DNA from: Haliotis cracherodii
Taxonomy: Eukaryota
Assembly: GCF_022045235.1 (NCBI RefSeq)
Contig: NW_027266275.1
Span: 73,780,001 to 73,844,000 of the forward strand
Length of the DNA: 64,000 nt
Direction of reading: 5' to 3'
Shown: positions 10,964 to 64,000 of the stretch, piece after piece
Layout of the letters: every line of letters begins with the position of its first letter
Position numbering within the stretch: position 1 is the stretch's first letter
Translations under genes and position numbers: made by a program
Notes under the pieces: model-generated
Databases searched by the model: none
What the model was told of the DNA's origin: nothing
Seen by the model: the letters and a program-made list of their open reading frames with translations, nothing else

Positions 10964-11352
10964 TACATACTGGTTAAAAACAAAAAAATACTTCTTTTAT
11001 GATCATGCTTGACACTTTTTGTTTTGAGAATATCCCACATACTTCCTTCTTCATATTGATCAGTGTTGTTGGAAATTAGAGAGTCTTTGACACAAAATAC
11101 TTTCTCTTGATCTCCCTGTTTAATGAGTTGTTCAGACTAAATTGCAATGTAACCACTATTCTTGTTGGCTTGCAGGGTTTTCCTGGATTGGAGCATCTGT
11201 ATGGCAAGTCACTGTAGAACAAAACCTTCCAGGAGCACCAAAACCTCAAAGCTTAAAAGTATTCTGCACCTGAGCAGGCCAATGACTAAATTATGCCTCT
11301 CCACCCTCTTCTCAATCTATACTGCCGAGTTCTTTAGTAGTAATTCTTTAAT

Positions 11353-23870: not shown

Positions 23871-26800
23871 TCACCTCGAGACGACGTCTGGAGCGTCAGT
23901 AGCAACATGTGGAGAGTGATGAGTGCAACGTCTTATCTTCACCTTTGACAGAAGTCCGTAGAGCACGCCACACCCAATCATACATCCTCCGGCGGCATAG
24001 AAGGTGTTGTCATAATTCCCCGACCCGTCATACAGCAACCCTGTGGAACACGCACACATATGAGTGTCAACACTCGGCCCTACATTGCCAGATACCCCGC
24101 ATCTTTTCAAGTTATAAGGCATATGCCTTAAATTGAAAGAGTCTGGTTTTACTCCGGGGTTGGGGAAACTACAAAGCCACACCATTTTCGTCCTGTGACA
24201 CCCATTTGTCCCTCAACATGATAACATTATAGGTTAATTACAGTTAAGTATTGATCTGCGTCCCTTATAGTCTAAGAAATGTCTATTACCATCAGCCAGG
24301 GTTGGTAGCCTAAATAATATAGAAGTGCATTTCCCTGATTGTGATAGTGTATCTGTCATAATTCTTGACTACATTCCTTACTAAAACATCTATAACATAT
24401 TTAGCAGTGTTAATTTCACCATTACGAAGAAGTTTATTTGCAATGAATTTTCAGTGGTTAATGGCTGTGTACCTCTTATGATGAGCATTGACTTAATATT
24501 ATTTCAAATTACAAAGAAATGACATTTCATAATTTTGAGTTGGCATTGGTCTCAGTAAATGGCTGGCTTCTTTAGTTATATTTCAATAGTTTCTGAAGTT
24601 CTTTTTTTCCCCCAGCGATTGATATTGGTATGGAGAACTTTGTTGTCCAGGGAGAGAACTCTGTCTAATTTTCCTTACGGGTTTCAAGTAGAGTCTAGAG
24701 TTATACTCGAGTAATAACATGGCCTTAGACACAAGGAAAGAATCCGGGCCTTCGGTTTATCGAGCGAATGCTTTAATCCCTAAGCTACCCCACCGCCCCA
24801 TATGAATTATAAAACTTACACTTGATCCTAGATATAAACGTTTCAACAACAAACATATGGAAGCCCTAGGTAGAATTTAGTGCGACTCAGTCGGTGCATT
24901 GTTGGACTGGTTTCACAACTACGGCTGCCGTAAATCCCACGCCGCAGCACTACTTTACATCAGCTGTAGTCTTAAAATAGCTTTGTGAACCGGGATCTGG
25001 TTTCCAAACGGTTAGTGAGTGAGTTGGGGTTAACGTCACTTAGAACAGATTTCGGCTATATCACGGCGTGTCATCTTGGAGTGTGAGGAAAGGCCAAAGC
25101 GATGCAAGTAGTATAACTTTGATAAACCTCACGAACACGTGTTTGTGTTGACACACCTAGAATCCCTGTCAGGGATATAACTTAGAAAAGTGAATTACGA
25201 CACCTTTTGTCAGCAGGGCGACATGGCGACGAGGGGTGACATGGAGGTGTTCGACGTTAACCAAAAAGAAAGCTGCTTTCTCGAGCTTTACGACAATAGT
25301 TTCAAACTGGCGACTTCCATGCCAGACTATACTTTGAAAATTTATTTTGACCAAATTCTCAATTCAAAATTCGAATCCTGAACAAAAGAACATTCTGGAA
25401 TGTCTCAATAGATGGCCGAGATTGTATCGCAGTACATTCCGCGAGCTTTGTCACGTCTTGTCCGTTGATGTTTATCTCATATTGAAGCGAGAGATTGAAG
25501 AAGATTTTGATGGGATCAGTCGTACAGCTCGTAAATGTCGTTCGGAATACACCGAGTTAACCTTTTCGAGGTTGCATGATTAGAAAACAAATTTTGACAG
25601 TAACTTTCCTGATCTGGTAAGCGACGCACTGATTGGTCGGATGACAGGTTGTTCTGACGTGATCCGGGTTATATATATTGTTTTATTCCTTTTTATTTCC
25701 AAAGGGAGGCATGGGAGAATGTACAAGGGTTGAAAGGTTTGGTTTGTATTAGTTTGTTTGTATGTAGTTTTACGCCACACTATTCCAGCTATATGACGGC
25801 GGTCTGTAAATAATCGAGTCTGGACCAGACAATCCAGTGGTTGACATCATGAGCATCGATCCAGCAATTGGGATACGATGACATGCACCAACCAAGTCAG
25901 CGAACCTGACCACCCGATCCCGTTAGTCGCCTCTTACGACTAGCATAGTCGCCTTTTACGGCAAGCATGGGTTGCTGACGACCTATTCTACCCCGGACCT
26001 TCACGAGTCGGGAGTTGAAAGGAGATTATTAATAAAGGAAATAGTTATGATGGGGGCAGACAATGTTCACATTCATTGATTTATCACACAACCGTATCGT
26101 TTACGTCCTTGCACAAGTAGTAGTGTCCTTGGATAACAGTCATGGTACACACATCAGTGTTACTGTTGTTTAGCGGGACAAGTGGGATACATAAAAGGAG
26201 ACAGCAAACTATATCAACATCTGTCTGGTTTAGGAGAGAAGCACCGAGTTCGCTAGGACCGATGCTCATGACCAGCCAGAGGTTGTTTCGTTCAGCTGTT
26301 TTCTTATCACACTTGCACACACTATGAATAAGAAGGTTAGAAAACTTCTCAGATCTTTATTTGGCGGTAAGGATAACTAAGATCTGATTTTAATGAGATG
26401 GACTCACTGAAAACGTATTAAAAAGTAAAAGACTATGAATATATCATTTGCTGATGTTTTCATCATAATTTCGTCTACCCAACACAAGATGCCAAGTGAT
26501 AAGTAAACCCCTCTTTATTCAAATAACTGTTTCCGCACCCAACATCCCAGAAAGGATTTCAGTGACACAAACATGAACTGATCCAACCCAGTACCTTGAG
26601 GTACTCATGATCACCAGACACCTACCTGCAATGGGTGGGCCTAGCAATTCCCCGAAGCCCTTCAGAGTTATGATGTAGCCATACGCCGAGCTGAGCCGCC
26701 CGGAGCCTAGGATATCCACCAGCATCACTAGATTCATGGAGTCTGCAGGCGCTGAGGACAACCCAAACACAGCTGCCAAAATTGCAAGTGGTGTGAACGT

Positions 26801-28306
26801 AGAGAATAGGGGCATAAGTGTCAGGGCTGTGCCAGAGAGAGCTGCAGTGACACAATACATGGCGGTCTTGTTAATGTTGCGGATATCCATTAGAGATCCA
26901 AAGAGGAGGCAGCCAACTAACTGCGAAGCGCCTATGATGGATAGGAGAAAGGAAGCGTTCTTCTTGTCCACGCCTTGTTCTATGGCCTTGTCAGAAAGGT
27001 ACACGTAGGGAATGCCGACCCAGAGGTTGAAGACAAAGACAGCAAACGTGTAGAGCAGATACTTAGGGTTTGTGAAAACATGAAGGCTCAAGTTTGAACA
27101 ACAGGCTTTCAAGACTGCCTTCAAATAGCTTCCATTCTTTATATCGAAGTGTTTCTCTTTGTCCGTGGTGACATCATTTTCATTGCAGTAGCTTTGAAGA
27201 ATAGAGGGTGAAATATGTTCCGTAGGATATGTGGTTTCGCCGACAAAATGTTCAAATTTTTCATGCGTAGGTATGGTAGAAATACTATCTTGATTTTTCA
27301 CTCGGGTTCTCTCCGTTCTCGGTGGTGAAGCTGGCTGAAATAGGGCACCACATACACAGACATTCAGCATGATAGCAGACAGAATCATCAACGTCCCTCT
27401 CCACCCATAGGTCACCAACAAGTTCTCAAACACTATGGGCATAAACACCGTCCCCATCCCTGCGCCACACTCCGCGATGCCAGACACCAGACCCAGCTTA
27501 CTGCTGAAATGATGATCGAGAATCACGGAACATGCTAGGTAAGGAAAAGAAGCTCCTATCCCGGCCAGACAGCCAAACGTCAGGTACATCAGACCCAGCG
27601 ACTGTACAAATACGCTAGCCAGTATTCCAAGTGCTGTGACGACTCCTCCAACCATGGCCGTAATCCGACATCCAAGTTTGATAGCGATGAGACTTGCCAC
27701 AGCTCCGCCGATAAGAGGAAGAGAGACAAACAGCGAACCAACTAATGCCACACTGCTTTTTGAAGCCCCGAAATATTTCCAAATGTCGGTGAAGAGTACA
27801 CCGAAGGCGTTGAAAGACCCCTCGAGTATGAAATGGGTGAAGAAAGATCCAATTACAATTAGATACTTCCAGTGAGGCCTGCATGTCTTAGTGAGTTTGG
27901 GGGTAGATCCATTACCATCACAGTCCCACGTTGCTGGTCGTGTTGTCTCCTCTACTGACAGTGTAGCTGGGGAAGAACGACCATTGGGTATGTCATCTGA
28001 AGGCGACTCCACCATGGTGATGTCTGTTGTTCCTAATGTAGACTCGGCTGTACACTCCTCTTCCTGGTCAGACAACTCAGTACTTTCTCGGAGATGTGAC
28101 TTCCCCAATGCAGTGGTCTTGATGTTCAATGTGAGCAATGTGTTGGTTCCATCTTGTTTTTCTTCAGCTGTTAACGAATCATCATTGAAAGGAGCTGGTG
28201 CCTTTTCTATGCCCTGGTCCCCCTTGTCCAGTTCACAGAGAGCCAGTGCTGCAGTGGGGACCTCGTTGTCCTGTCCCACTCGAGGCTGACCAGTGCCGTC
28301 CTCCAT
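23871..28306 (-). CDS. second SLC16 monocarboxylate transporter paralogue, ~616 aa; coding exons 28306-26626 and 24040-23871
   Basis: MFS/MCT TM pattern (FGVLFTDI, YGWRGTLMIL, LLGPPIAG); GTAGGT donor at 26625 and CAG acceptor at 24041 give in-frame PPIAG-LLYD; same intron position as the first MCT. Confidence 0.88.
25745..26010 (-). mobile_element. family B SINE-like repeat in the MCT intron
   Basis: reverse complement of the family B core. Confidence 0.8.
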
Positions 28307-29096
28307 GTGTCGGCACGACGGTGAGGAGAGAAGGACTATGGGCTACCATGTAGGTCAATTCCTATACACTGTGACATCCTCGCTGAGCTGGAGGACGTGA
28401 CTGGCATGATGGACTCTGTGCATTGCATTTGTAATGAAAGTTGATACGAGTTTATCAGTCATTCAATTTTTAGGGGCCGACCATTTGATATTCAGGTCGG
28501 GGGTGGGTGGGGGATATCAACAAAAAGGAATTGTCATTGAACATACTTGAAAAAAATCATGCTTCAGACACCTTCAGACACAGGATGTGATTGGTTTAAA
28601 AACATCAGCTCAAGTTGAATAAATGAATAGTCGGCCCGTATAGTACATTATAGTCCATGAAACACACATGCGAATCTGAAATGTTGCATTGTAGAAACCG
28701 ATATTTAACAAGGTCTTCTGAAACACAAAGGTGTATGATGCCATCTCTTTTGGTTTTCATGTTATGTTGTTATATACATGTTGTGGTGTATTTGTTTATT
28801 TAGTTGGCACTGTAAGATCCCATGATTCACAATGAGATGGTCTAGCTTTGGTTGATAGTGGTCTATAGCCTGGTTTTAATTTATGAGAACTAATCTACTG
28901 AAATAGGTTTGTTTTATATCTAAACTGTGATATTACCTTACTGTTTTACTGTCCTCCATCGACAGGTCTTAAATTATAGTAACTACCCTGTTCTCATCGC
29001 GATATGGTTGCAATATTGCCAATGCGATGTAAAATTTTAACTCACTCACTCACTCATTGTTTATTTAGTTCCATCTTCCCGAGGTAAGGGCGTTAA

Positions 29097-44251: not shown

Positions 44252-44607
44252 AGAGGTGAGGTGAGGTGAAATTGGGTTTAACGTTGCGTCCAAGATTATT
44301 GCACTTATATAGCAACGTGCATGTACGTGTGTTTTTGTGTGGCTGCTTGTACTAGCCCGGACTGATGCCGATTTATAGTGCTAGCACACTGAGATACCAT
44401 GCCGCAGTTTAACATGAATACCCCACTCAGACACAGTATACTGACTCCGAGCCGACCAGTCCTTGTTTTAGCCCCTCAATGCCGAACGCCAGATAGGGTA
44501 GCATCAAGTACCATCTTTTAACGTCTTTTAGTATGACGCGGCCGGGGATCGAACCCCGGACCTTCCGCTCTCCGGGCGGACGCTCTACCACTAGACCACG
44601 GAGGCGG
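44252..44607 (-). mobile_element. tRNA-derived SINE (family D) nested in a family B copy (~44170-44780)
   Basis: head GACCGCCTCCGTGGTCTAGTGG...GGTTCGATCCCC; 14-bp TSD TCGAGCCTGGAACA at 44238 and 44608. Confidence 0.85.
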
Positions 44608-51125: not shown

Positions 51126-51718
51126 TCTCACACTCACACACCATGGAGAGTGAGTGGATGTATTATGTCATATTTCCTAATTGGTACTAATTATTGTTTG
51201 TTATTGCAGTGAACATTGCCAGAACAACATCCCCAGAAATAGAAGGTGGATCATATGATACGGGTGATTCTGACTTCTTCACTCCGGATTTGGAGTTGAG
51301 TAACACTTGATCAATCTGTCAACACAAAGTTGTACTCCTGACAAAGGCATCCACTTGGCAAGGACATACCATTGGAGGTTGGGAACACCAAGCATGAAAA
51401 CTGTCCCTATACTTTGTGTTGGAGTGTCATTTGTTAACATTCCTTGCGGTCACATTCTTCATAATGGACAAGGATAATGAAACTGTATTGTTCACAGACA
51501 CGGCAATAATAACGACGGCGATAACTGGATTAGTCAACGCATTGGACATTATTGAAAACATCGTCATCATCTTCATCATTGCCAAGACGCCTGCCGTGAG
51601 ATGATTCTCTGGAGCTCTCATGGTAAACCATGCTGGAGCTGACGTCATTCAGGAAAGTATCATTCAGACTGTCATATTTTTGTTTGTTATTCGTCCTGGA
51701 ATGGTTCAATTTGACATA

Positions 51719-52239
51719 AGTAGTTGTGTACTGTAGTGTGGAACCACCTCAGGATTATGGAACCGCTCAGGATTATGGAACCAAGATGGCGGCACATCCT
51801 CTGTGACGTCACTTCCGGTCACGTGACCTGCGCAGTGCATGATGGGACTCTGCGCGTGCGCCTCCAAGATGGCGTCGCTTCCGTTTCCGGTGGCGTGCGC
51901 CTCCAAGAGGGCGTGGCTTCCGTGTCCGGTGGCGCGCGCCTCCAAGAGGGCGTCGCTTCCGTGTCCGGAGTCGCGCGCCTCCAAGAGGGGCGTCGCTTCC
52001 GTGTCCGGAGGCGCGCGCCTCCAAGAGGGTGGCGCTTCCGTGTCCGGTGGCGCGCGCCTCCAGGGGTGGCGGTGGTGGAGGGAGGGAGGGAGGGAGGGAG
52101 GGAGGGTGGTGGTGATGAAGGGAGGAAGGAAAGGAGGAAAGGAGGAGGAGACGGGTTCATGGTTTGGTTTGGAGGGTCGTCAAAGCAAAGGAGGAAAGTT
52201 GTCTTTCGGGAGAGATGGGTGGCCCTGAAAAGGGCCGTT
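51719..52239 (+). repeat. left TIR (521 bp) with ~6 internal 38-39-bp GC-rich repeats
   Basis: reverse complement of 62598-63118; mirror ORFs in the ORF track give identical translations. Confidence 0.95.
52201..52239 (-). terminator. histone-type 3' stem-loop and putative HDE ending the CCHC gene
   Basis: minus strand AACGGCCCTTTTCAGGGCCACCCA...CCGAAAGAC; stem-loop at 52221-52236, 133 nt after the stop. Confidence 0.8.
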
Positions 52240-52369
52240 GGAAAACAAACTGGAAACTGGAAACTGAAAACGACAGGAAACGTCAGGAACACTGGAACAC
52301 TGGAACACTGGAAAAACTGCAAACGATGGGACACTGGTAAAAAACAGTGGGGTAGCATGGTCCCATGCG

Positions 52370-52972
52370 TTAGTCACTTTGTTCAGATGATCTCTCTTCT
52401 TCATCCTCTACTTCCATCTCATCCTCGGACTGAAGGTGTCGTCGGCGCTTTGAAGCGTGCTTTCTTGAGAGGCTTCTGGCCCGTTTTCTTTTCTCTACAA
52501 GAGGTGTGATGTCCGCCCGGAGTTGTGCGAGGCATTCTTTTAGGTCGAGGACATCGACGTGCACGTCTTCGATGAGATGAACCACTTGTGTCACGGGTGT
52601 CACGGGTGTCACGGGTGCCACGGGTGTCGACGTGGACGGTGTTGCTGACGTTTTCTTTCGACTGGGTTCTGGGCAATCTGCAGCGAAATGACCCAGGGCT
52701 TGACAGTTGTAACAGTGGTCCAGGCGATGGGGAGTCTTCTTTCGACTGGGTTCTGGGCAATCTGCAGCGAAATGACCCATGGCTTCACAGTTGTAACAGG
52801 GACCCAGGTTCCGATTCTCCTGCTTCTCTTGACTGTTCATCTTCGGACAGACATAGTGACGGTGACCTTGAGTGCCACACTCGAGGCATGTCACTTCAGG
52901 GCAGTACAGGTAACTGTGACTGTCGGTCTGGCACTTCATACAACTGTATCGAGCTGGCATGATGGGTTTCAT
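52370..52972 (-). CDS. zinc-knuckle protein (4x CX2CX4HX4C), 200 aa, with basic NLS-like and acidic tail
   Basis: CMKCQTDSHSYLYC, CLECGTQGHRHYVC, CYNCEAMGHFAADC, CYNCQALGHFAADC; TATA cassette upstream. Confidence 0.85.
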   Translation of the reverse strand: MKPIMPARYSCMKCQTDSHSYLYCPEVTCLECGTQGHRHYVCPKMNSQEKQENRNLGPCYNCEAMGHFAADCPEPSRKKTPHRLDHCYNCQALGHFAADCPEPSRKKTSATPSTSTPVAPVTPVTPVTQVVHLIEDVHVDVLDLKECLAQLRADITPLVEKRKRARSLSRKHASKRRRHLQSEDEMEVEDEEERSSEQSD

Positions 52973-53019
52973 AGAATGCAGTGTGTGTGTGTGTGAGTGG
53001 CTTCGCTCTTGTTTTGTTT

Positions 53020-53285
53020 TTTTATAGGAGAGGTACTGACATCCTGCTTCCTGATTGGTTCCCCAGGCCGCGCCCCCGATTGGTTCGTTTCAGGGCCTGG
53101 TCTGCACCTCGGTTTTCCAAAACGGACCGACCCCTGTGTTTCTTTTCCATAGGAAATGGATTTTACCATGGGAGAGAAAGCACAACCCCGGTTCGACCAT
53201 TCAGAGTCCCGCATGACCCGAGCACGGTCTCTGATTGGTCGACAACCCAGGCTTCGGATTGGTCCAATTTCGATCCGGTTTTTTT
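53020..53285 (-). promoter_or_regulatory. promoter cassette copy 1 (multi-CCAAT + TATA) for the CCHC gene
   Basis: CCAATC x4 and CTATAAAA; homologous to the copies at 56050, 60679 and 61937. Confidence 0.75.
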
Positions 53286-53494
53286 TATCGGGGTGTGCAT
53301 TTCGATCCTGTTTTGTTTTTCTTCATCCTACAGACCACAGAACACGACTATGAGTTTTTAAAAAAAATTTAATCCCCTCGCTCACATGAACCAACACCAC
53401 AAAACAAAAAGTCACAGGATGAGGGGACCGTCCCTGTGACTTTTGTGAACACTGGGGGTATGAACGTCTGTACACTTTGAAAAAAGAAACGTTG

Positions 53495-54007
53495 TCACTT
53501 GGGGTGAACAAGACACTCGACTCTTCTCTTCCGTGCTTCTTGGGACACCAAACGTCTGTATTTTTCGTTCACTTCTCCATCAGGACAAAACACACACAAG
53601 TATTCGCAGGGCACTTTGGCGTGCTTCAGATGTTCTTTCCAGGGTTGGTCTGTGGCTTCCCATTGGCGGAGTGCCACACCGCAGCAATAACAGGTCACAC
53701 AGTCACCTTGTCCTGGATAGAAATAGCCAGCCATGGCCATGTCATACGGGGTCTGGGTCATCTGTTGAGGCCACGTTTTAAAAGATCTCAGACGTTCTTG
53801 AAATGAATCATAGTGAGGATGAGAAGGATGACACAGGGTGTAAGAAGGAAAAGGTCCCTCCAGAATGTCACTGAGTCGCCACGTGTCGTCCCTAAAGAGG
53901 GAACGTTTTCTCGCTTCTTGTTCTCTCGCCTTTTCAGACACCCACTCGGAATCGGTGACGACATCTCGGGAGGATGACATGACATTCATAGAACGTCTTT
54001 GCTCCAT
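53495..54007 (-). CDS. single-BIR (IAP/survivin-like) protein, 170 aa
   Basis: RLRSFKTWP...AGYFY...VTCYCC...W...D.PWKEH...C BIR signature; CATAAAA and TCAGT upstream (54057, 54027). Confidence 0.88.
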   Translation of the reverse strand: MEQRRSMNVMSSSRDVVTDSEWVSEKAREQEARKRSLFRDDTWRLSDILEGPFPSYTLCHPSHPHYDSFQERLRSFKTWPQQMTQTPYDMAMAGYFYPGQGDCVTCYCCGVALRQWEATDQPWKEHLKHAKVPCEYLCVFCPDGEVNEKYRRLVSQEARKRRVECLVHPK

Positions 54008-54755
54008 GATGACGGGGACTTCACTGAAAGAAGGTCTGAGGGTTCGCCTGCTTTTATGAAACTCTCCACCCTACTCCCTTCCACCTCCTCCTTCACCTCC
54101 TCCACCTCATCACGTGACGTCATCCTGTGTTTGGGTTGACGGACACACGGCATGATTCGTGACACGATCCATGACATGACATGGTACACGGGGAGGGGGT
54201 GTGGGGATCGATGCGTACTGGAATGACCGACACCAGGCAGCTGATCTTTCAAGCATGGCCTTTCTCTTTTATCTATTTTTATTTTAATTTTACACTTGGG
54301 TGTGCACTGACATGACAGATGCACAGACAGACAGACAGACAGACAGACGGACAGACAGACAACGTCAACGACATCTCAACTCAACCTCTACCCTCGGTTC
54401 GGCACTCTATTGGAGTTGAGATCAATCAAGACACAAAGAGTCAGTTCAATCAATCACTGTTTAATCATGAAAAAACCCAATCACAACCAGATACAATGGA
54501 AATACGAAAAGTCAATGGAGGAGGGAGTGCTTTGCATGTCCCTACAACAACCACAACCACAACAACAACAACAATAACGCGACAACGTTTTCCTCTTCCA
54601 TCTTCAAGCCCATAAGAGGTGGTCCTCCCTCAACCCTGTGAGAGGTCCATCCGTTCAACACGTACAGTCTATGGTCTCCCTGAAACAGACATGACACATC
54701 ACTTGATCACGGTTGCAGCTTACGTGTTGACAAGTTCTTCGAGTGAAGAGGAGGA

Positions 54756-55846
54756 TCACCATAAGATGTGATCCTCAGCAGATGTGATAGGCATGTCATC
54801 ATGTGTCATTATGCGGTCATAGGTCAACATACTACAAGTACAGTCTATGAGCTCCAGACCACAGGTATGACACATCACTTGCCCGCTGTTGCAACTGATG
54901 TATCTTAACATGTTGTTGTGTCGGCAAATACGACATCCGCGTTGTAGGGGAGTGAGTTGAGCTTCTCCATAAGGATCCAGGTCAACGTCGTTGTCATCCA
55001 CATCATCATCATCATCTTCATTATCGTCGCAAACCAGGGGCGTACCTGAGGAGTAGACATGAACATCTTCCGGGGATGTTGGTGACCAAGAAGCCTCAAG
55101 CAGGGGGAGCGTGTCCAGATCCATGGAAGGGAGAGTGGCCAGCTTGAGCGCTTCATGATCCTCACGGTCACCCGTCGCCATCGTCACAGCAGGGGCATTC
55201 GGTGAATAGGTGGGCTCCCGAGGGGTTTGTTCCCACCACTGTTCTAGCACGCCCTGGACTGAACTGACATCAGGGGTCCTGTCAATCATAGGACAGAGTC
55301 CATTTATCATAGGAATAGGTCATGAATATGAATCACATCAAGAATGACTGAGACAAAGAAGAGCAAGGGTACTTACAGCTGTTCTTGAGGAGAGATCTTC
55401 AGAGATAATTTCTTCCGTGATCGTCTTTTTGCAGGCGTTGCAGGTTTCAAAAAGGATGTCCCCATCGTTTCGATGTCTGTGGTCGCTGCAGCCGTTGTTG
55501 CTGTTGCTGCTGTGGTGGTGGTGGTGGTGGTGGGTGTTGCTGCTGCTGTGGGGATCACAATGACTGTGGGCTTGCTTGTCTTTTTCTTCTGGATCTTCTT
55601 TATCGTCTTCTTCGATGTGCCTTTCTCGGGTTCAGTCAGCTTCCTCATCTTTGAACGTATCTGTTCGCACATCAGGTTGTCGCCCTTCGCACGTAACTTG
55701 GCGTACGCGTCGTCGGTCTTCATCTTTAAACACAGCAAGTCGTACACTTCACCCCACAGTTCAGCAGTCATGTCACCGTTCCCATCTCCACTGCTTCCTT
55801 GGCCACTCATGTCGCTTCGCGTCTTGTCATTCAATCGTTTCGACAT
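54756..55846 (-). CDS. spliced ~330-aa E1A-like (Oncoid-like) protein; exons 55846-55377 and 55278-54756
   Basis: GTAAGT donor at 55376 and TTGACAG acceptor at 55279 join two ORFs in frame; LVCDD plus acidic run plus GCRIC...MCHTC zinc finger. Confidence 0.6.
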
Positions 55847-56049
55847 GATGTTGTCCGGATGTTCTGTTCGTTGTTGTTTCTTTTCAAGTCTTCACGGAGG
55901 TGCGTCAACACTTGATGGTACTCTCTCCAAACACGTGTTTCTTCCAGATAAAACGCCAACAACCAACACAACGTGAGGAACATCAATCAGAGGGGGACGA
56001 TGTGGTTGCTTGGTCCGTTCAGTGAAAAGTGATGACCGGAGAGCATCGG

Positions 56050-56290
56050 GCGTATTAAAAGCCACGGAGGTCCTGCTTTCTGATTGGTCCGTTCCGGTGT
56101 CTGGTCTGAGTCTCCATTTTTCCAAACTGGACCGACCCTTGTGTTTCTTTTCCATAGGGTTAGGCTTGTAGCGTGAGAGAGAAAGCACAACCTCGGTTCG
56201 ACCAATCAGAGCCCACCATGGCTCGAGCACGGTCTCTGATTGGTCGACAACCCAGGCTTCGGATTGGTCCGATTTCGATCCGTTTTTTTT
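56050..56290 (-). promoter_or_regulatory. promoter cassette copy 2, upstream of the E1A-like gene
   Basis: GGATCGAAATCGGACCAATCCGAAGCCTGGGTTGTCGACCAATCAG core; CCAAT x4. Confidence 0.7.
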
Positions 56291-56349
56291 TTTTTTTTCT
56301 GTAAGGGGTTCATGTCGATTCAGTTTCGATCCCTTGTCATGCAAAAAAA

Positions 56350-59300
56350 TTATAGAAAGTCGTCTCTGTACCCAAAGGGGAGCGTGTCTACAGGTAGGCC
56401 TGTGGTGTCGTCGTAGACGACACGTCGCTTGTCGTACACGGTACGATAGTCTTTTCGGGTGGGACGGGTCACGAGTGCGTTTTCGTGCCGAGGTCCTTTT
56501 CGAATGATCTGATGAGGGTAATCCAAACTGATTTTCTCTTCCTCCTCTTTCCCAGACCGTTGTCCCAGTATCAGTCCTTTCATGGTGTCAAAGTTGAGAT
56601 GGCGTTGGTTTCGGTAATTCAAAGTGAACCCTCGCACTTTGCAGGTCGTGCGCGTTCCATCGGGCCTGGGGTTCATTAACTCATAGCCATAGTTTTTGGG
56701 ACCTCCTGACACAAACGTCTTGATGGTGTTTCCGTCCAGTTCATCCGTAAACTCACCCAACGAATGACCCAGCTCTGGATTCGCGTCGTGGGGTCGATGA
56801 ATGTAAATGACGCTGTCCGTGTCAAAGTACAAGACCCTGCGGCCCACCAGGGCAAGGGTCTCGTACAGCTTGAGACGTGCTTGGGCGGTGACCCAAGCAG
56901 CGATGGCGACATTGAAATGAGAATGAGGGGTTTGGAATTCTTTCCGCTGGGTATAGGTCACATCCACCATGTGTTCGTTGACAACGGTCACATCCTCGAT
57001 GGTATTGCGGTCATCCCTCCACAAGGCAAAGTACTGTGCAGGATCGTTCATATAGACGTTCTGACTGTAGTCTACCCGTTGCCCAAACTTGCCCCAGAGC
57101 GAATTCAGTTGCATCTTGGCAATCGTGCGGCGTCCTGGATTTTTTTCGATGCGGTCCTTGTCCAACCGAATGCCTTCTTTGTCGTAGATCTCCTGGATGT
57201 AAGCGTCGTGATCCGTACATCCTTCGGGGTATCCGCTGGCTTCGAGCTTCTCCTTGAAATGTCGATCGATGTAAGTGTCAAAGAGTCCCACTTGCTGGGT
57301 GTCGGGGTCATGCTGTGCAAAGGTGTCAAAATGCCAAACGTCGTAGATCTGAAGCACCCGGTAGTCATACTTCTTCACGGCTTCCTGGAGTTCTACGGTG
57401 GCGTACGTCCCCACCCATGACCTCTCTTCGTCCGTGTGCTCGCAGGGGGAGTCTGACCGGGTATCGGCACACGTACGGCACAAAGGACAGAGCAGTTTGC
57501 CACCCGATCTGTAAGGCAGTAGCGGATGGTAGAGTCGTTTCGGGGGTAGGACACGGCATTGGATCAGGCCTTTCAGTTCAAACAACGTGTCCACAGGGGG
57601 TTGATGGAGAAGGGTCGGGTGTCCCGTGGGAAACGCTCCGATCTTACAAATGTAGGGATAAAGGGAACAAATATCAATGTACTTGATGGTTTCACCTTCT
57701 TGGGCTTCGTAGCATAATCGCGTGGCATTGGTGCGTCCTCCATAGAAGGTGTCGCGAGGGTTGAGCGGCCCGGGGACGTGACGACAGTGGGGTCCCTGCA
57801 AGAAAGCACGTAGAGCGGAGTCCTCCCGTTGCATTTTCGTAAATTCGTGCTCCCACAGGGCGACGACCCGTTTCACCTCAGGGTGTTGACTCAAGAGACT
57901 CAAGCGGTAGTGGGTGTCGGTGTAACGGGCTCCCAACGACGTGCCCAGGACGGGATGCGGTTCTCCACGTCGGGTCTTGTGACAGGTCTTGCACCCATGC
58001 CAGAAACAGCCCAGGAATTCGTAGACGGTGCCTGTCGCTGGATCGTACCCATCCACGCTGTACCGATGTTGGCCCTCTCCACAGGTGAACTCTTTTTCAC
58101 CGCCATTCCTGGCGTGCTGGAGGTGCAGATGGGGGTCCCTTTCCATCAGAGAGTGGAGCCAGTGCATACAGGCCTGGGAATAGTTTCTCTTGGGTTGGTA
58201 GCCTTGAGGTGGAAGAATGGCGATGGTATTGGGTTTCAGGTCGTGTTTTCGGAAGGATTTCATGGTGAACGCAGCAGCTGTCATCACTTCCACAAAGGGA
58301 TCCATGCCCACCGAGTGGATGGCGTTCTGTCGGAAGTCGGCGCATCCCCGTCTCAAAATGTCCACATCGCTCTGGCAGTAAGCTAAAAGTTCTTCTTGTA
58401 AGTCGAACAAGGCTCCTTCTTGCACTTTTTGGGTATGCCACTGGAGGAAGGCTGAGCGTTCCGCGGGAGACATGCCATCGGGATCGTACGTGACGGCTGG
58501 TGGATAGGGACCTCTGTAGGTCTGATTGACTCTCGTATTGAAAAAGTGTGGAAAGTACCCTTTCTTCGTTTCTTTCAGCCCAAAGCTCTTGGGAAAGGCT
58601 TTCAGGGGGTAAGGGATGAAATTTAAGCTGTCTTCGAAACACAGTCGTCCCAGGGTCATCTGCAAAATGTGTTGGCCATGTCGAATCTTGGTGGGGAGTG
58701 TCACCAGGAGGGGGGACAGGCCCTTCAGGATTAAGTGTAAATCATAGGATCGTGCATTGTGGGCCATCACATAAATGCGATCCTCCTTCGGGACTGTATG
58801 GCAGGAGGTGTTCTTGTTCTTTGGCTTCTTTGTATTCTCCACTTCCATGGCCTCTTCCACTTCCTCCACCTCTTCCGTCTCCTCCGCCTCCTGCTGGGGT
58901 GATGCATGCCGTTGACGTTTGGTAGCGTCCTTTCTTGAGGGGGTGCCATCCCGTTTTCTTTTTTTCCCCAGGGGGGCTGTTGTCCCCTTGCGTGTGCTGC
59001 CCTCCTCTTCCTCCGGGTTGGGCTTCTTCTTGGGTATTTCACACAACGTGGTCAACCACACACACACATCATGTCGCGTGGTGGGCCCTCGAAACACGAT
59101 CTCACGGCTGGGACCATACCCTTCTTCTCTCCATGGGCAGTGTTCGAACAAGTTCTTACTCACTTCACTGATGCATCGTCCACATCCTAGTTGCACCACG
59201 CACAAATTTGGAATGTGCTCCCCCGTGTCTTGCATGCATTCAAAATCGTAGAAGACGTATTGGACGTCGTCTCGTACGTGATGTTGTTCCTCTTCCCCCT

Positions 59301-60597
59301 CCTTCTCCGTTTCCTCTCCCCCCTCCCCCTCCTCCTCCCCCTCCTCGTTTTCTTCACGGAGAGACGTCATGTAACAGCGATGGTCTGGGGTCATGGGTTC
59401 TCGGCACACCAAGCAGGGATGTTCTTCGTCGAAGCACTCGTGGTGAACCATGGGGGTCTCCAAGACGCGGACCAGCTGAAAACAGTTCGGGCACCTGTGA
59501 ATCGATTGACAGGCGCTGGGTTTTCCCTCTGACGGTGACTGGAGATGTCGGGTGTAACACGTTGGATTGGGGAACCAACCTTGACATGTCAAGCAAGGGA
59601 TCCCGAGCTCTTCCTGGGGTCCGCAATAGCTAGAGTAGAAGCAGCGGTGACAGCGGTATTCCTTGGTGCAGGGATGTTTTTCGGGATGGTCGTAACGTTT
59701 GTCGCAGCGTTCGCAGTAATGGTCAGACCCGTAAAAAGCGGACATGGAAGTGATGACATCGTAGTGCTGATCATGATGGTATAGATGCAGCACCCTGGCG
59801 TGAGGTGGAGCCTCATCACACTTGTACAACAGTCTCTGACCCACCTCTTGACTGTAGACTTTCAGTTGATAATGCAGGAGGGTCAAGGCCCGTCCCACGC
59901 GTGCGAGGTCGTCCAGCCCCCGACAGGGACCTTCAGGCAGGCCAAGGCGTCGAAACAAGGCCCGTGCCCGTAGGCCTTGAACGTCGACGCGATTCGTTCT
60001 CGTCAGTCTCACTAACTGGGCTTTCCATGCTGGGGTCAGAGGATGGGGTTTGTGGGCATAATGCTGTGCCACCACCAGGGCCCGTGCCAAACAGGATTGA
60101 TCTTCGTTCTTGATCCGTACGATGCACCTTTTGCGTGTTAAAAAAGCTTCGAGTCCAATCACGTTTTTCACCCGGGGAGCACCACTGCCCGATCCTAACC
60201 TGTCGGGATCTGCGACGTGTACTAAAGTCACATCCATGGTGGCATCGATGTTCAGGTCTTTGTTGGACTGTTGGACTTTTTCCACGGCCTGCAAAATATC
60301 TGGCCCATGGAGATCTTCAAAACGTCGAAAGGGAATCCGTATGGGGGTGTTCAAAGCGGGATGATCGATACCTAGACCAATACGATCTCCCTTCTGACCT
60401 GACGTCTGTTCATAAAAGTCATCGATCACCCTGTCAAATAAAGCTGGCAGTTCCAGGGGGACGCGTTCCGGTGGTACGGTGTCCAAGTAGTCTGGGTTGA
60501 AAGTCAAACGATAGGTATGATTAGCAGTTCTTAACCGTCTGGAGCGGGTGGTATCTTTCCTCTCCAAACGATAGGGCGTACTTTGGTTGCTCGTCAT
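56350..60597 (-). CDS. polB: protein-primed family B DNA polymerase, 1415 aa, with N-terminal TP/OTU-like region and inserted Vsr-like nuclease motif
   Basis: Exo I YDFEC, Exo II HNARSYD, Exo III YCQSDV, YGGRT, DICSLYP, KMQLNSLWGKFGQ, YFDTDS, GPKNY; uninterrupted ORF. Confidence 0.95.
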   Translation of the reverse strand: MTSNQSTPYRLERKDTTRSRRLRTANHTYRLTFNPDYLDTVPPERVPLELPALFDRVIDDFYEQTSGQKGDRIGLGIDHPALNTPIRIPFRRFEDLHGPDILQAVEKVQQSNKDLNIDATMDVTLVHVADPDRLGSGSGAPRVKNVIGLEAFLTRKRCIVRIKNEDQSCLARALVVAQHYAHKPHPLTPAWKAQLVRLTRTNRVDVQGLRARALFRRLGLPEGPCRGLDDLARVGRALTLLHYQLKVYSQEVGQRLLYKCDEAPPHARVLHLYHHDQHYDVITSMSAFYGSDHYCERCDKRYDHPEKHPCTKEYRCHRCFYSSYCGPQEELGIPCLTCQGWFPNPTCYTRHLQSPSEGKPSACQSIHRCPNCFQLVRVLETPMVHHECFDEEHPCLVCREPMTPDHRCYMTSLREENEEGEEEGEGGEETEKEGEEEQHHVRDDVQYVFYDFECMQDTGEHIPNLCVVQLGCGRCISEVSKNLFEHCPWREEGYGPSREIVFRGPTTRHDVCVWLTTLCEIPKKKPNPEEEEGSTRKGTTAPLGKKRKRDGTPSRKDATKRQRHASPQQEAEETEEVEEVEEAMEVENTKKPKNKNTSCHTVPKEDRIYVMAHNARSYDLHLILKGLSPLLVTLPTKIRHGQHILQMTLGRLCFEDSLNFIPYPLKAFPKSFGLKETKKGYFPHFFNTRVNQTYRGPYPPAVTYDPDGMSPAERSAFLQWHTQKVQEGALFDLQEELLAYCQSDVDILRRGCADFRQNAIHSVGMDPFVEVMTAAAFTMKSFRKHDLKPNTIAILPPQGYQPKRNYSQACMHWLHSLMERDPHLHLQHARNGGEKEFTCGEGQHRYSVDGYDPATGTVYEFLGCFWHGCKTCHKTRRGEPHPVLGTSLGARYTDTHYRLSLLSQHPEVKRVVALWEHEFTKMQREDSALRAFLQGPHCRHVPGPLNPRDTFYGGRTNATRLCYEAQEGETIKYIDICSLYPYICKIGAFPTGHPTLLHQPPVDTLFELKGLIQCRVLPPKRLYHPLLPYRSGGKLLCPLCRTCADTRSDSPCEHTDEERSWVGTYATVELQEAVKKYDYRVLQIYDVWHFDTFAQHDPDTQQVGLFDTYIDRHFKEKLEASGYPEGCTDHDAYIQEIYDKEGIRLDKDRIEKNPGRRTIAKMQLNSLWGKFGQRVDYSQNVYMNDPAQYFALWRDDRNTIEDVTVVNEHMVDVTYTQRKEFQTPHSHFNVAIAAWVTAQARLKLYETLALVGRRVLYFDTDSVIYIHRPHDANPELGHSLGEFTDELDGNTIKTFVSGGPKNYGYELMNPRPDGTRTTCKVRGFTLNYRNQRHLNFDTMKGLILGQRSGKEEEEKISLDYPHQIIRKGPRHENALVTRPTRKDYRTVYDKRRVVYDDTTGLPVDTLPFGYRDDFL

Positions 60598-60678
60598 GAT
60601 AGCGATGTGTGTCTGATGAACGCCTGTACTCTAAGAGGGTCTGAACGTCTGATGGATGGACAACCCTTCCCCAAAACA

Positions 60679-60980
60679 GGATCGAAATCGGACCAATCCG
60701 AAGCCTGGATTGTCGACCAATCAGAAGACAGCCTCGACCAATCAGAACACAGCACCCGACCCGAGTTGTGCTTTCTCTCCCATGGTAAAATCCATTTCCT
60801 ATGGAAAAGAAACACAGGGGTCGGGTCGTTTTGGAAAACCGAGGTGCAGGCCAGGCCCCGAAACGAACCAATCGGTGCGTTGCGTTTTGGACCAACCAGG
60901 AAGCAACCCATTTCGATCCGGTTCTTCCCCCATAAAACAAGAGTGGATTCGAATGGGTCAGTGTCACTTGTAAAATTGAT
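60679..60980 (+). promoter_or_regulatory. promoter cassette copy 3, between divergent polB and BIR genes
   Basis: CCAAT x4, CATAAAA at 60931, TCAGT initiator at 60958. Confidence 0.75.
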
Positions 60981-60995
60981 GTGATAAAATCAAGA

Positions 60996-61454
60996 ATGGC
61001 TGAAACAAAGAAGAGTGGTACGACGACGACGACGCGTGGCGAAGATGTGGGAATGGAGGGTACAGATACTCGTGGATGTTGGAGTAAGAGTCATGCCGAG
61101 GAGGCGGTGTCACTGCTCAGTCAAACGCCATCGCACTATTATCTGCGCTTTGAAAGAAGGCTCGCTTCGTTTGAGACGTGGCCCACGCAAATGTATCAGA
61201 CTGCTGAAGAGATGGCTCATGCGGGCTTTGTCTACACTCAGGGTGCCGATGGTGTGTGCTGTTTCCAATGTGGTGTGCGGCTGAGACAATGGGCACCCCA
61301 CGACAATCCTTGGGCGGCACATCACAAGTGGTCCCCAGACTGCGATTACCTCAAGCTAACCGGGCTGGTGAAACACCAGAAGCAACTACAACTACACTAT
61401 CTCTGCGAAGAGAAACAGAGGTACACGAATGACGTAGCAGAGCCGGCTGCCTAG
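60996..61454 (+). CDS. second single-BIR (IAP-like) protein, ~152 aa
   Basis: RRLASFETWP...AGFVY...VCCFQC...W...DNPWAAH...PDC; first ATG after the initiator is at 60996. Confidence 0.88.
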   Translation: MAETKKSGTTTTTRGEDVGMEGTDTRGCWSKSHAEEAVSLLSQTPSHYYLRFERRLASFETWPTQMYQTAEEMAHAGFVYTQGADGVCCFQCGVRLRQWAPHDNPWAAHHKWSPDCDYLKLTGLVKHQKQLQLHYLCEEKQRYTNDVAEPAA

Positions 61455-61514
61455 GAGGACGACGTTTCCCGTGTCCTGCGTTCCCGTTCAAGTTCCCGTT
61501 CAAGTTCCTGTTCA

Positions 61515-61556
61515 TACGGCCCTTTTCAGGGCCACCCATCTCACCCAAAAGACAAC
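61515..61556 (+). terminator. histone-type 3' stem-loop and putative HDE ending BIR gene 2
   Basis: ACGGCCCTTTTCAGGGCCACCCA...CCAAAAGAC; stem-loop at 61518-61533, 63 nt after the stop. Confidence 0.8.
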
Positions 61557-61936
61557 TTTCTACCTTTGCTTTGCCAACCCCAACCCCAATTTGAAAACAC
61601 ACACACACACACACACACAGGGCACGACGTTTGCATGGCAACACACAAAGTACATGACGTTCACATCGTGACACGAAGTCCATGACGTGTGCAAACTTAA
61701 CGTCACGTAGGTGTATCGATCTTTCTCTATTCATCTCAATACGACACTACTCAATACACACACACACACAGGACACCACGTTTTGCCTGACATTCCGATT
61801 GGCATGGGAGTGACACACACGTACATCACGTAGGCATTCCCACGTTCATGTCTACCGATGAAGGTCCACCTTCCTTTAGCATTCAGACGACCGTCTACCT
61901 CAAAAAAATACCTAGGCTACCCAAGAAGAAAAAAAA

Positions 61937-62240
61937 CCGGATCGAAATCGGACCAATCCGAAGCCTGGGTTGTCGACCAATCAGAAGCGGCGCTCGGACC
62001 ATGGCGGGCTCTGATTGGCCGAACCGGGGTTGTGCTTTCTCTCCCATGGTAAAATCCATTTCCAACGGAAAAGAAACACAGGGGTCGGTCCGTTTTGGAA
62101 AACCGAGGTGCTGACCAGGCCCCGGAACGAACCAATCGGAGCTGCGGCCTGGCGAACCAACCAGGAGGGAGGATGTCAGTACCTCTCCTATAAAACAACA
62201 GTGGATTCGAGTGGTTCAGTGTCACTTGTAAAATTGATTT
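61937..62240 (+). promoter_or_regulatory. promoter cassette copy 4
   Basis: CCAAT/ATTGG x4, TATAAAA at 62189, TCAGT at 62216. Confidence 0.78.
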
Positions 62241-62257
62241 AAAAAGAAAGCATCATC

Positions 62258-62590
62258 ATGAGCAACAGCAACAACAACAACAGCAACAACATCAAGTCTG
62301 AAAACTGGGATTTAGAAATCGCCACAGTGAAACAACCTGTGCCCCTGTGGAAAGAAGCATCACCACCACCACCATGGTCTCCAGCATGGCAATGCGACAG
62401 ATGCCAAGGGGGCCTGCCTGTGTACGCCCTTGGTACAAGGGCACGGGATGGGACTTTCGAATGTGTGTACTGCGGCACTGTGCTGAAGGACACCTACGCG
62501 CGTCGGTTAACGCACACCGGTAGGTGTCCTGTCAGACGTCAAATGAAAGTTCACCCGTGCCTTTGCACCATGGCGTGCACATGCATGTAA
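62258..62590 (+). CDS. small Cys-rich zinc-ribbon protein, 110 aa
   Basis: CDRC-x19-CVYC and a C-terminal H/C cluster; bracketed by a promoter cassette and a stem-loop. Confidence 0.65.
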   Translation: MSNSNNNNSNNIKSENWDLEIATVKQPVPLWKEASPPPPWSPAWQCDRCQGGLPVYALGTRARDGTFECVYCGTVLKDTYARRLTHTGRCPVRRQMKVHPCLCTMACTCM

Positions 62591-62597
62591 ATATCAA

Positions 62598-62637
62598 AAC
62601 GGCCCTTTTCAGGGCCACCCATCTCTCCCGAAAGACA
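62598..62637 (+). terminator. histone-type 3' stem-loop and putative HDE ending the Zn-ribbon gene
   Basis: AAAACGGCCCTTTTCAGGGCCACCCA...CCGAAAGAC; stem-loop at 62601-62616, 10 nt after TAA. Confidence 0.8.
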
Positions 62638-63118
62638 ACTTTCCTCCTTTGCTTTGACGACCCTCCAAACCAAACCATGAACCCGTCTCCTCCTCCTTTC
62701 CTCCTTTCCTTCCTCCCTTCATCACCACCACCCTCCCTCCCTCCCTCCCTCCCTCCCTCCACCACCGCCACCCCTGGAGGCGCGCGCCACCGGACACGGA
62801 AGCGCCACCCTCTTGGAGGCGCGCGCCTCCGGACACGGAAGCGACGCCCCTCTTGGAGGCGCGCGACTCCGGACACGGAAGCGACGCCCTCTTGGAGGCG
62901 CGCGCCACCGGACACGGAAGCCACGCCCTCTTGGAGGCGCACGCCACCGGAAACGGAAGCGACGCCATCTTGGAGGCGCACGCGCAGAGTCCCATCATGC
63001 ACTGCGCAGGTCACGTGACCGGAAGTGACGTCACAGAGGATGTGCCGCCATCTTGGTTCCATAATCCTGAGCGGTTCCATAATCCTGAGGTGGTTCCACA
63101 CTACAGTACACAACTACT
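62598..63118 (-). repeat. right TIR (521 bp)
   Basis: inverted copy of 51719-52239. Confidence 0.95.
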
Positions 63119-63849
63119 GACATACACCTTCGACTTGCCCTACCTAGTATCAGTGGCGTGGTCTCTCACAGCGTAAGTGCCCTTTCAGTAAACCTGTACC
63201 TGGCTATATGCAGACAGCAGCAGTATAAGCGCTTAGTGATATGGAAACGGGTCTTTGCCTTCATGGCTTGTTCCTGGACCATCAACATTGCGATCGGCAG
63301 CCTGTACCATGTTGTGCCGTCAGTTTACACAGCTGACCTCAAGTCACGTTCAGATATCCTGTACATGGATATAACGCCCTCCAACTGTTGGTTCTATCTT
63401 CTGCTGGTTTTCAACATACTGCTCATCGCAAATTTCACAGCAGGGTCTTGCTACCTGTGAATTCGTTCTTTTATGAAATGTCCTACCATGTCCACCATAG
63501 GTCCTCACAACATGAATAAGCTGCAGCTTTCTCAGATGATCCCCATCATGACCATCATCTACCTCCTCACCTTCATCCCCATCTATATCATCATCTCCGC
63601 CAAGGTTCAGATACATGGTGTCAAGGCAGTTTTCTGGGTTGTTAACTCTTCCTAGTACGTCCTCAAGATGTTTCTTTACTTCAAGTTGTACAGACCTTTC
63701 AGGGAGACGGCGAGGGCTATTTGCTGCCACTCCTGTCAGAACCGTGTAGGTCCAACACAATAGTAACAAGGTGGCACTGTCCAAACTACTGGGAACAAGT
63801 GAGCTGACAGCCATTTTGAAACACAGTTAAGTCTAGTACATAGCGGAAT

Positions 63850-64000
63850 TTAGTACCGTCTGGTGTCTCGTACCTAGCGGTGTGTAGTACCTACTGGTGT
63901 CTAGTACCTACTGGTGCCTCGTCCCTAGTGGTGTCTAGTACCTACTGGTGCCTCGTCCCTAGTGGTGTCTAGTACCTACTGGTGTCTAGTCCCTAGTGGT
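63850..64000. repeat. 16-17-bp tandem repeat running off the window end
   Basis: GGTGTCTAGTACCTACT / GGTGCCTCGTCCCTAGT units. Confidence 0.85.

Follow-up and report, generated by a model that had tools for sequence, protein, structure and literature searches.

Why should genes of a mobile element end in the 3' signal of replication-dependent histone mRNAs? The question is raised by a Polinton-type element of 11.4 kb, with PolB as its sole Polinton core gene, that lies in the 64,000-nucleotide stretch of Haliotis cracherodii DNA analysed here (the window; Table 1). An earlier note on this DNA had reported three exact copies of the histone hairpin, each behind a short ORF, and had read them as histone mimicry. 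The three copies were confirmed, and their distances from the stops of the CCHC, BIR2 and Cys-rich genes (133, 63 and 10 nt) were reproduced from the ORF ends. The intervals between stop and hairpin are indeed free of AATAAA, of which the element contains two, at 60437 on the plus strand and 54278 on the minus strand. Shuffling gave no hairpin match in 100 shuffles, even allowing two mismatches. Scored with the Rfam Histone3 model (RF00032, gathering score 34), 3/3 element hairpins exceed the cut-off, by 0.6-2.4 bits, with host core histones at 34.3-38.8 bits; so do 4/4 hairpins in the partner and satellite loci described below.

Table 1. Features of the polymerase-bearing element, in coordinates of the window.
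Feature	Position	Strand	Remarks
Left target-site duplication (6 bp, GACATA)	51713..51718		
Left terminal inverted repeat, 521 nt	51719..52239		starts AGTAGT; contains 39-nt subrepeats, downstream element and hairpin
Histone-type 3' signal 1	52196..52241	-	hairpin 52221-52236, ACCCA; AAAGA 14 nt after stem; Rfam 36.4 bits
Zinc-knuckle (CCHC) ORF, 200 aa, hairpin gene	52370..52972	-	Pfam zf-CCHC
Promoter module copy 1	53015..53286	-	GGATCG motif, CCAAT boxes, TATA
Second kind of 3' module (hairpin + ATTAAA), behind BIR1	53303..53475	-	common to protease 3' end of partner element
BIR1, single-BIR ORF, 170 aa, without histone hairpin	53495..54007	-	Pfam BIR
AATAAA, ~470 nt past predicted spliced gene	54278..54283	-	sole one on minus strand of element
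Predicted two-exon gene, 330 aa, without histone hairpin	54756..55846	-	putative 98-nt GT-AG intron at 55376-55279; no protein family matched in Pfam search
Promoter module copy 2, upstream of spliced gene	56118..56297	-	3' end diverged
Polymerase (PolB) gene	56350..60597	-	PF03175, E 1e-33
Promoter module copy 3, between divergent polymerase and BIR2 genes	60673..60987	+	H3-like paired CCAAT boxes
BIR2, single-BIR IAP-like ORF, 152 aa, hairpin gene	60996..61454	+	Pfam BIR
Histone-type 3' signal 2, internal	61513..61558	+	hairpin 61518-61533; Rfam 34.6 bits
Promoter module copy 4, with TATA	61929..62230	+	start region matches host H3 at 19/21 nt
Cys-rich ORF (putative Zn-finger), 110 aa, hairpin gene	62258..62590	+	
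Histone-type 3' signal 3	62596..62641	+	hairpin 62601-62616; Rfam 35.6 bits
Right terminal inverted repeat, 521 nt	62598..63118		ends ACTACT
Right target-site duplication (6 bp, GACATA)	63119..63124		

The genes themselves are not histone genes as far as a Pfam search of the ORFs can tell, since it returned no histone family. Two of the protein labels first given to the hairpin genes, CCHC and BIR, are upheld by Pfam; the third, 'Zn-ribbon', rests on CxxC pairs with no family above cut-off, and a database search found no homologue of this 110-aa protein. The frames are open, as the term 'intronless' implied, although this is read from DNA and not from transcripts. Two of the hairpins lie within the perfect inverted repeats, 3 nt from their inner edge. 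Many copies of the element are young, and in the terminal repeats, where two of the three hairpins lie, end-to-end copying could preserve them without selection.

The likeness to host histone genes extends beyond the hairpin. Host H1 genes have exactly the same 16-nt hairpin, with AAAGA again 14 nt after the stem; the four host core histone ends differ in the third stem pair, which is U-A, and in their gap of 13 nt. In four dispersed host H1-type genes, the first 140 nt past the stop contain no hairpin. What the sequence supports of the proposed mimicry is a full histone-type 3' signal, matching host H1, conserved and gene-linked. Each hairpin gene is also preceded by a copy of a repeated CCAAT/TATA promoter module. 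At the Zn-finger gene, the match of the start region to host H3 beats 3000/3000 shuffles and 300/300 host controls, and of 24 promoter comparisons with host histone genes, H3 alone reached p<0.05, with no significant likeness to H2A, H2B or H4. The module also lies upstream of the spliced, AATAAA-ending gene and is therefore not specific to hairpin genes. As for the processing machinery, the host encodes an SLBP RNA-binding domain; its U7 snRNA was not found with RF00066, and a U7 pattern search gave 5 matches versus 6 in the control, none of them convincing.

We propose that the family acquired a histone-gene expression cassette, with a CCAAT/TATA promoter on the 5' side and a stem-loop and downstream element on the 3' side, that would serve short accessory genes. 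Host SLBP would bind the hairpin transcripts and the U7 snRNP would cut them just past ACCCA, leaving no poly(A), and they would accumulate alongside histone mRNAs in S phase, in cleaving embryos and in oocytes. Other 3' signals would end the virion genes, the spliced gene and the polymerase gene, the last of which carries no histone-type hairpin signal in the element sequence. Since the polymerase and structural genes have no hairpin, S-phase coupling by this means would be limited to the small accessory genes; the benefit could be, for instance, that replicating cells make a BIR protein that counters apoptosis. That the transcripts of the hairpin genes are processed by host SLBP and U7 is, in our judgment, quite probable.

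Alternatively, the hairpin might serve to bind SLBP or to make polymerase II pause, with most transcripts polyadenylated at a site downstream of it and no strict S-phase coupling. Poly(A) tails are, after all, also described on histone mRNAs of oocytes and of some tissues (PMC5100578, PMC11997800), and the host H1 3' region has an AATAAA shortly past the downstream element. However, AATAAA is absent within 260 nt downstream of each of the three hairpin-gene stops, and the downstream element is conserved together with its exact spacing, something that SLBP binding alone would not need. We consider this outcome unlikely.

The signal was also compared across copies. The host genome contains 319 exact matches to the hairpin signal. 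Among the 30 examined, the AAAGA core, which lay outside the search pattern used to collect the matches, is invariant in 21/21 haplotypes, and 29/40 downstream columns vary (p ~0.02, kin not corrected). When cassettes were found through their downstream part alone, the exact hairpin was present in 11/12 neighbouring ones, one further match being non-homologous, and a downstream-anchored search found a hairpin at 52 of 65 places, 45 of them exact (by eye). Copies of the Zn gene at pS 0.22-0.42 retain it. Judging from these sequences, even diverged subfamilies keep the hairpin signal, and its position is tied to genes rather than to ends. It is improbable that histone-gene DNA was captured once and carried passively in the repeats and an internal duplication with no function. 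Such carriage would fit the many element copies that are 99% identical, the single changes seen in 7/52 hairpins and the 2/65 places that lost the hairpin alone (by eye). It would also fit the internal copy, which had been presented as a stem-loop kept intact in diverged surroundings: internal it is, but not a lone hairpin, as it has 65 nt in common with the repeat copy, at 91% identity, and its 5' side alone is unrelated. Against passive carriage, the variants shared by subfamilies fall in the spacer and downstream columns and never in AAAGA; the BIR2 3' UTR varies between 60 and 328 nt across copies, yet the signal stays behind the stop; and a satellite of the family retains only one hairpin cassette, that of an 86-aa protein, with frames open in both copies.

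This 86-aa gene is the fourth hairpin gene, found in two other element types with the same promoter family and with the hairpin 46-47 nt past the stop. Its product belongs to no Pfam or PHROG family and has six unnamed homologues, its best fold match (Z 6.4) being a lead only; none of the four accessory proteins has an exact-sequence match in the protein collection searched. Measured across copies, pN/pS is 0.36 for BIR2 as well as for the Zn gene, which places both under purifying selection; the CCHC gene (0.79) and the 86-aa gene (0.82) show little, with few copies compared. This selection disagrees with the idea that the RNA is a decoy or silencing handle that sequesters SLBP, or through which U7, pairing with the downstream element, represses the mobile element, and so does the arrangement of the signals, which are always in sense, 10-330 nt behind an ORF and with histone spacing. 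We regard this idea as very improbable, despite the human LTR12 described as repressed by U7 through HDE-like motifs and NF-Y/CCAAT boxes (PMC11417402), the CCAAT-rich promoters of the element, and the downstream element retained without a hairpin at one partner end.

That partner is a second element of 10.4 kb, with the same terminal repeats, that encodes an integrase, an ATPase, capsids and a protease, and no polymerase. Its integrase scores 45.7 bits (rve) and its A32 ATPase 27.6 bits, and the capsid model matches Sputnik, iridovirus and mavirus capsids (E 1e-15 to 1e-13), with no PDB sequence match. The minor capsid is assigned by position and by 34% identity to a sister gene, and the protease has a weak Pfam match only (E 0.037). 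None of the seven partner proteins matches the polymerase element, and PolB is unmatched in the partner. Among the candidates scored in the assembly (62/560 for polymerase, 95/378 for capsid), 0/48 capsid places lie within 25 kb of any of the 62 polymerase places; in two sister families the polymerase-capsid distance is 5.9 and 8.9 kb. The complementary gene content of the two elements, their common ends and the absence of close polymerase-capsid pairs among the scored candidates suggest a bipartite Polinton. Two shorter elements that were considered as a third coding segment turned out to be a partner derivative without capsid gene and a fold-back satellite. A complete member of the family could exist outside this assembly. 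With common terminal repeats, a polymerase half and an integrase/capsid half would need complementation in trans, and we infer that it occurs because polymerase-only copies, without an integrase, have target duplications.

The hairpin-less ends had been candidates for deletion copies of the polymerase element, which was rejected, for they belong to the partner. There, the first bases of a promoter module are joined directly to the spacer, so that promoter, ORF and hairpin are cleanly missing. The earlier statement that the terminal repeats double as 3'-processing signals fits the copy described here, yet a repeat can do without the hairpin: partners lack it at one end, and in the satellite it lies 2.8 kb inside. 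A role of the palindrome as DNA, as replication origin or integrase site, would suit hairpins at the inner edge of both repeats but is the least probable reading and largely refuted, given that partners hairpin-less at one end carry their own matching target duplications, that the end homology of the satellite stops before the hairpin, and that an internal hairpin copy exists.

In a wider scan, the canonical hairpin was absent in 93 polymerase-related loci and in 20 kb of a sister Polinton from the host genome. The scan covered 95 loci and 757 kb (93 polymerase-related metagenome or viral loci, most of them partial with 28/93 reaching 10 kb, and two sister-Polinton stretches) and gave two loose hairpins without histone flanks, versus 0.3 per shuffle. 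Viral contigs scanned with a single protein gave no match, and two hairpin pattern scans of such contigs gave 8 and 12 matches, mostly not histone-like and, judging by the ORFs shown, none in a Polinton. Over the loci scanned, then, the histone hairpin is not a general Polinton trait. Full-text literature searches, with supplements and Repbase entries outside their scope, returned no paper describing histone stem-loops in Polintons, nor one describing a bipartite Polinton.

How does this family compare with known systems? With metazoan replication-dependent histone genes it shares the hairpin, its flanks, the downstream element and the spacing (that of host H1), as well as the CCAAT/TATA promoter, an H3-like start region, short open frames and the lack of AATAAA; it differs in lying on a mobile element and in its products, which are BIR, CCHC, Cys-rich and unknown proteins. 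Among known cellular mRNAs, those of histones are presented as alone in lacking poly(A), and the same study reports that SLBP had no real non-histone target in HeLa cells (PMC4604434). With Polintons/Mavericks (adintoviruses, Polintoviricetes), the element shares a protein-primed PolB, long terminal repeats and a 6-bp target duplication, and the partner a rve-chromo integrase, A32 ATPase, double jelly-roll capsid and protease-like gene in sister-Polinton order. IAP homologues are listed as known Polinton cargo (PMC8502044). However, each half measures 10-12 kb, below the 13-25 kb range given for Polintons (10.1101/2023.08.22.554363), neither has the full gene set, with integrase, ATPase, capsids and protease off the PolB element, and close monopartite relatives lack the histone hairpin. 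Amplified Polinton copies without polB are described in Pieris mannii, according to that account with complete polB relatives in the same species (10.1101/2025.02.07.637071), whereas here polymerase-only and capsid-only types are both young and no complete member was found in the assembly. Bidnaviruses also have a bipartite genome and a Polinton-related PolB (PMC8502044, PMC4061559). Theirs is single-stranded DNA and parvovirus-like, whereas here we see integrated double-stranded halves with Polinton virion genes. To our knowledge, bidnaviruses have no integrase. The bracovirus histone H4, another possible comparison, would be a histone gene. HCMV, a DNA virus, is reported to need SLBP, and the part of that report available to us describes no viral hairpin-ended mRNA (PMC9169081).

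Beyond the first reading of this locus, our analysis adds a histone-like promoter cassette, and it suggests that a Polinton has split and that this element is its polymerase half. The whole picture, of a bipartite integrating Polinton and its satellite making poly(A)-minus non-histone accessory mRNAs through SLBP and U7, timed to replicating or embryonic cells, seems to us to have an even chance of being right. If true, it would be a natural exception to the histone-only rule, on a segmented double-stranded DNA virus-like genome. The hundreds of signals in one genome would then be natural non-histone substrates of SLBP and U7, which would allow asking whether processing works away from histone gene clusters. 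Separately, polymerase-only and capsid-only Polintons, both recently active, would show that the genome of an integrating lineage of double-stranded DNA viruses has become segmented.

The histone-type hairpins behind non-histone genes in this Polinton-type element are a real feature. The exact 16-nt hairpin occurs three times in the window and in none of 100 shuffles, and all three copies exceed the 34-bit cut-off of Rfam Histone3, a check proposed in an earlier note. That note had placed them behind CCHC, BIR and zinc-ribbon ORFs, and positions and distances hold: 133 nt past the stop of the CCHC ORF, 63 nt past that of the BIR ORF (BIR2, 152 aa, IAP-like) and 10 nt past that of the Cys-rich ORF (Zn). 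It was also right that no AATAAA separates stop from hairpin in these three genes, as a sequence scan of the element showed. The element's polymerase shares 91-99% identity with proteins assigned to Haliotis species, which makes an abalone host very likely. The window also holds two host frames, a tRNA-like sequence and a tandem repeat (see table).

The hairpin is restricted to short, unbroken accessory ORFs; the element's polymerase and BIR1 (170-aa, single-BIR) genes lack it. Two further ORFs join in frame over a 98-nt GT-AG intron into a predicted spliced gene of 330 aa, downstream of which lies the sole AATAAA on that strand. In hosts, intronless hairpin genes stand against spliced, polyadenylated ones, a division that the element, if the predicted splicing is right, mirrors. 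A second 3' module, a hairpin with a U-rich tail and ATTAAA, lies behind BIR1 here and behind the protease in the partner, a second element described below.

Among host histone genes, H1 appears to be the closest local counterpart of this 3' signal: its array carries exactly the element's 16-nt hairpin and a 14-nt gap to AAAGA, both found in 5/5 element cassettes compared, so that the comparison with host 3' ends suggested earlier gave a match. In the core quartet, stem position 3 is a U-A pair and the gap from stem to AAAGA is 13 nt. Since the 16-mer is common among molluscan histone genes, the match with H1, though the best locally, does not prove H1 to be the donor. Each of the three hairpin genes is preceded by a ~270-nt promoter module that contains a TATA box and several CCAAT boxes; the predicted spliced gene has a fourth copy upstream, whose 3' end has diverged. 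In 24 promoter comparisons with host histones H3 alone matched, through paired CCAAT boxes, and the Zn gene start region agrees with H3 at 19 of 21 nt, a score equalled by none of 3000 shuffles or 300 host stretches. An SLBP domain is present in the host; RF00066 and pattern searches of its genome found no U7 snRNA. The cassette (promoter module, short ORF, stem-loop, ACCCA, AAAGA element) probably directs SLBP binding and U7 cleavage: SLBP would bind the hairpin and U7 would cut, leaving mRNAs without poly(A) that would rise and fall along with histone mRNAs. Transcripts with mixed poly(A) ends are an unlikely alternative reading.

Genome-wide, hairpin plus ACCCA gives 319 matches, against none for the reversed control. 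Upstream of the first 30, those examined for ORFs, no histone ORF was found, and 19 have, by eye, a BIR2, CCHC or Zn ORF. AAAGA and its spacing, both outside the search pattern, are invariant in 21/21 haplotypes with 29 of 40 columns varying (simple p = 0.02, kinship ignored). The motif is conserved behind ORFs in related elements, in these haplotypes and in the family copies examined, a point on which the earlier note had made its reading depend. A downstream-anchored search gave 65 places (by eye) in its best 100 of 354 rows; among these matches listed, 45 have exact hairpins by eye and seven one change, with seven partner-type ends without hairpin, two hairpin-only deletions and four shortened copies. 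BIR2 (9 copies compared) and Zn (6 copies) both have a rough pN/pS of 0.36; CCHC (5 copies) gives 0.79 and an 86-aa partner gene (2 copies) 0.82, all values that include post-insertion decay. A hairpin persisting as a passive relic seems quite improbable, and one whose RNA serves as a decoy or silencing handle very improbable.

The seven hairpin-less ends belong to the partner. There, the first bases of the promoter module directly abut the spacer, which indicates that promoter, ORF and hairpin were lost together; at the opposite end stands the 86-aa gene, its promoter 70% identical and its hairpin 47 nt past the stop. Matching 6-bp target duplications flank five of six paired partner elements checked (four distinct insertions, two sharing flanks); the sixth matches only with one end 3 nt longer. 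In a fold-back satellite the 86-aa cassette, hairpin included, stands twice in inverted orientation, 2.8 kb in from the ends; by BLAST the satellite shares only these copies and the ends with the two elements. The hairpin is, on these comparisons, linked to genes rather than element ends. That it acts as DNA in the terminal repeat is very unlikely, because it travels with genes, partner ends without it still have matching target duplications, and the satellite copies are internal.

Integrase, ATPase, capsid and protease were all not found in the window element, whose polymerase recurs, 99-100% identical and in full open frame, in at least 21 places. The partner, with terminal repeats 93% identical, has an ATPase of A32 type and an integrase of rve-chromo type alongside a major capsid gene, a candidate for the minor capsid and a protease-like ORF; no polymerase was found in it. 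Its predicted capsid model (pLDDT 75.5) resembles double jelly-roll capsids (E 1e-15), and of 10 capsid copies at least 98% identical, 7 lack stops. Among scored places (one row per place at ~80% identity or above; 48/115 capsid and 62/69 polymerase rows), capsid and polymerase never fall within 25 kb of one another (nearest 88 kb), whereas 5.9 and 8.9 kb separate them in two sister families. Measured against one complete sister Polinton, the two halves are at about the same distance: identity is 56% for polymerase, 51% for capsid, 46% for ATPase and 41% for integrase. This suggests a Polinton split into a polymerase half and an integrase/capsid half. One study (10.1101/2025.02.07.637071) describes polymerase-less Polintons in a setting where complete relatives occur; here, in contrast, no complete member with polymerase and capsid appeared among the best scored candidates, though one may still exist. 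Bidnaviruses, according to PMC8502044, have bipartite genomes. The host genome also holds numerous copies of a third capsid family, at ~31% identity.

Features and their coordinates (unlabelled, window; G000:C, host genome; L, single loci or contigs read for comparison)
Feature	Position	Remarks
Window element	51719-63118	11,400 bp; 521-nt perfect terminal repeats; AGTAGT/ACTACT ends; 6-bp target duplication
Second 3' module	53303-53475; L197 6690-7001	common to both halves
Partner element	G000:C5:38614643-38625027 (L177, L190, L197, L178)	~10.4 kb; also 86-aa hairpin gene, three small virion-type genes
Partner derivative (L199)	G000:C34:64634450-64642820	8.3 kb; major capsid region gone; own target duplication
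Fold-back satellite (L198)	G000:C2:54225290-54234730	9.4 kb; same ends; target duplication
Sister Polinton (L075, L076)	G000:C4:10.27 Mb	polymerase, PC4, ATPase, integrase on one element; capsid gene just past 20 kb read
Host H1 genes	L170; L061	3.0-kb tandem array incl. 5S rRNA gene; separate from 4.25-kb core-histone quartet array
Noda-like virus hairpins	L205 2931-2976; L206 3996-4041	29 bits, below cut-off 34
Hairpin past capsid-like stop	L073 1212-1258 (-)	28.5 bits
Monocarboxylate-transporter (MFS)-like long host frames (named by eye)	11344-13293 (+); 26519-28342 (-)	
tRNA-like sequence	44534-44605 (-)	31.2 bits
17-nt tandem repeat	63816-64000	window end

The earlier note's proposed scan of other Polintons came back empty: the 93 polymerase-related loci examined from other organisms, with the complete relatives L078 and L083 among them, held no canonical hairpin, and neither did the 20 kb read of the sister Polinton in the same genome. 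The trait looks lineage-specific. Histone-like hairpins also occur near the ends of noda-like RNA virus contigs (Peptidase_A6 capsid, RdRP), 12 nt past the capsid stop, and 87 nt past a capsid-like stop in a 2.3-kb contig with a Rep-like ORF, where the downstream element is not clear and the hairpin may be chance. The accessible part of a 2026 preprint (10.64898/2026.10.14.759114) reports that no processing factors were found in large DNA viruses, and Polintons and transposons go unmentioned in it. No published report of histone stem-loops in Polintons, or of a bipartite Polinton, was found in full-text searches of the literature.

Read from sequence, two traits would be surprising here, histone-type 3' ends on non-histone genes and a split Polinton. 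Timing of expression to S phase or the embryo is about an even call. As the polymerase is without the signal, such coupling to histone mRNA would serve helper proteins: an IAP-like BIR protein, a zinc-knuckle protein and two small proteins of no named function.
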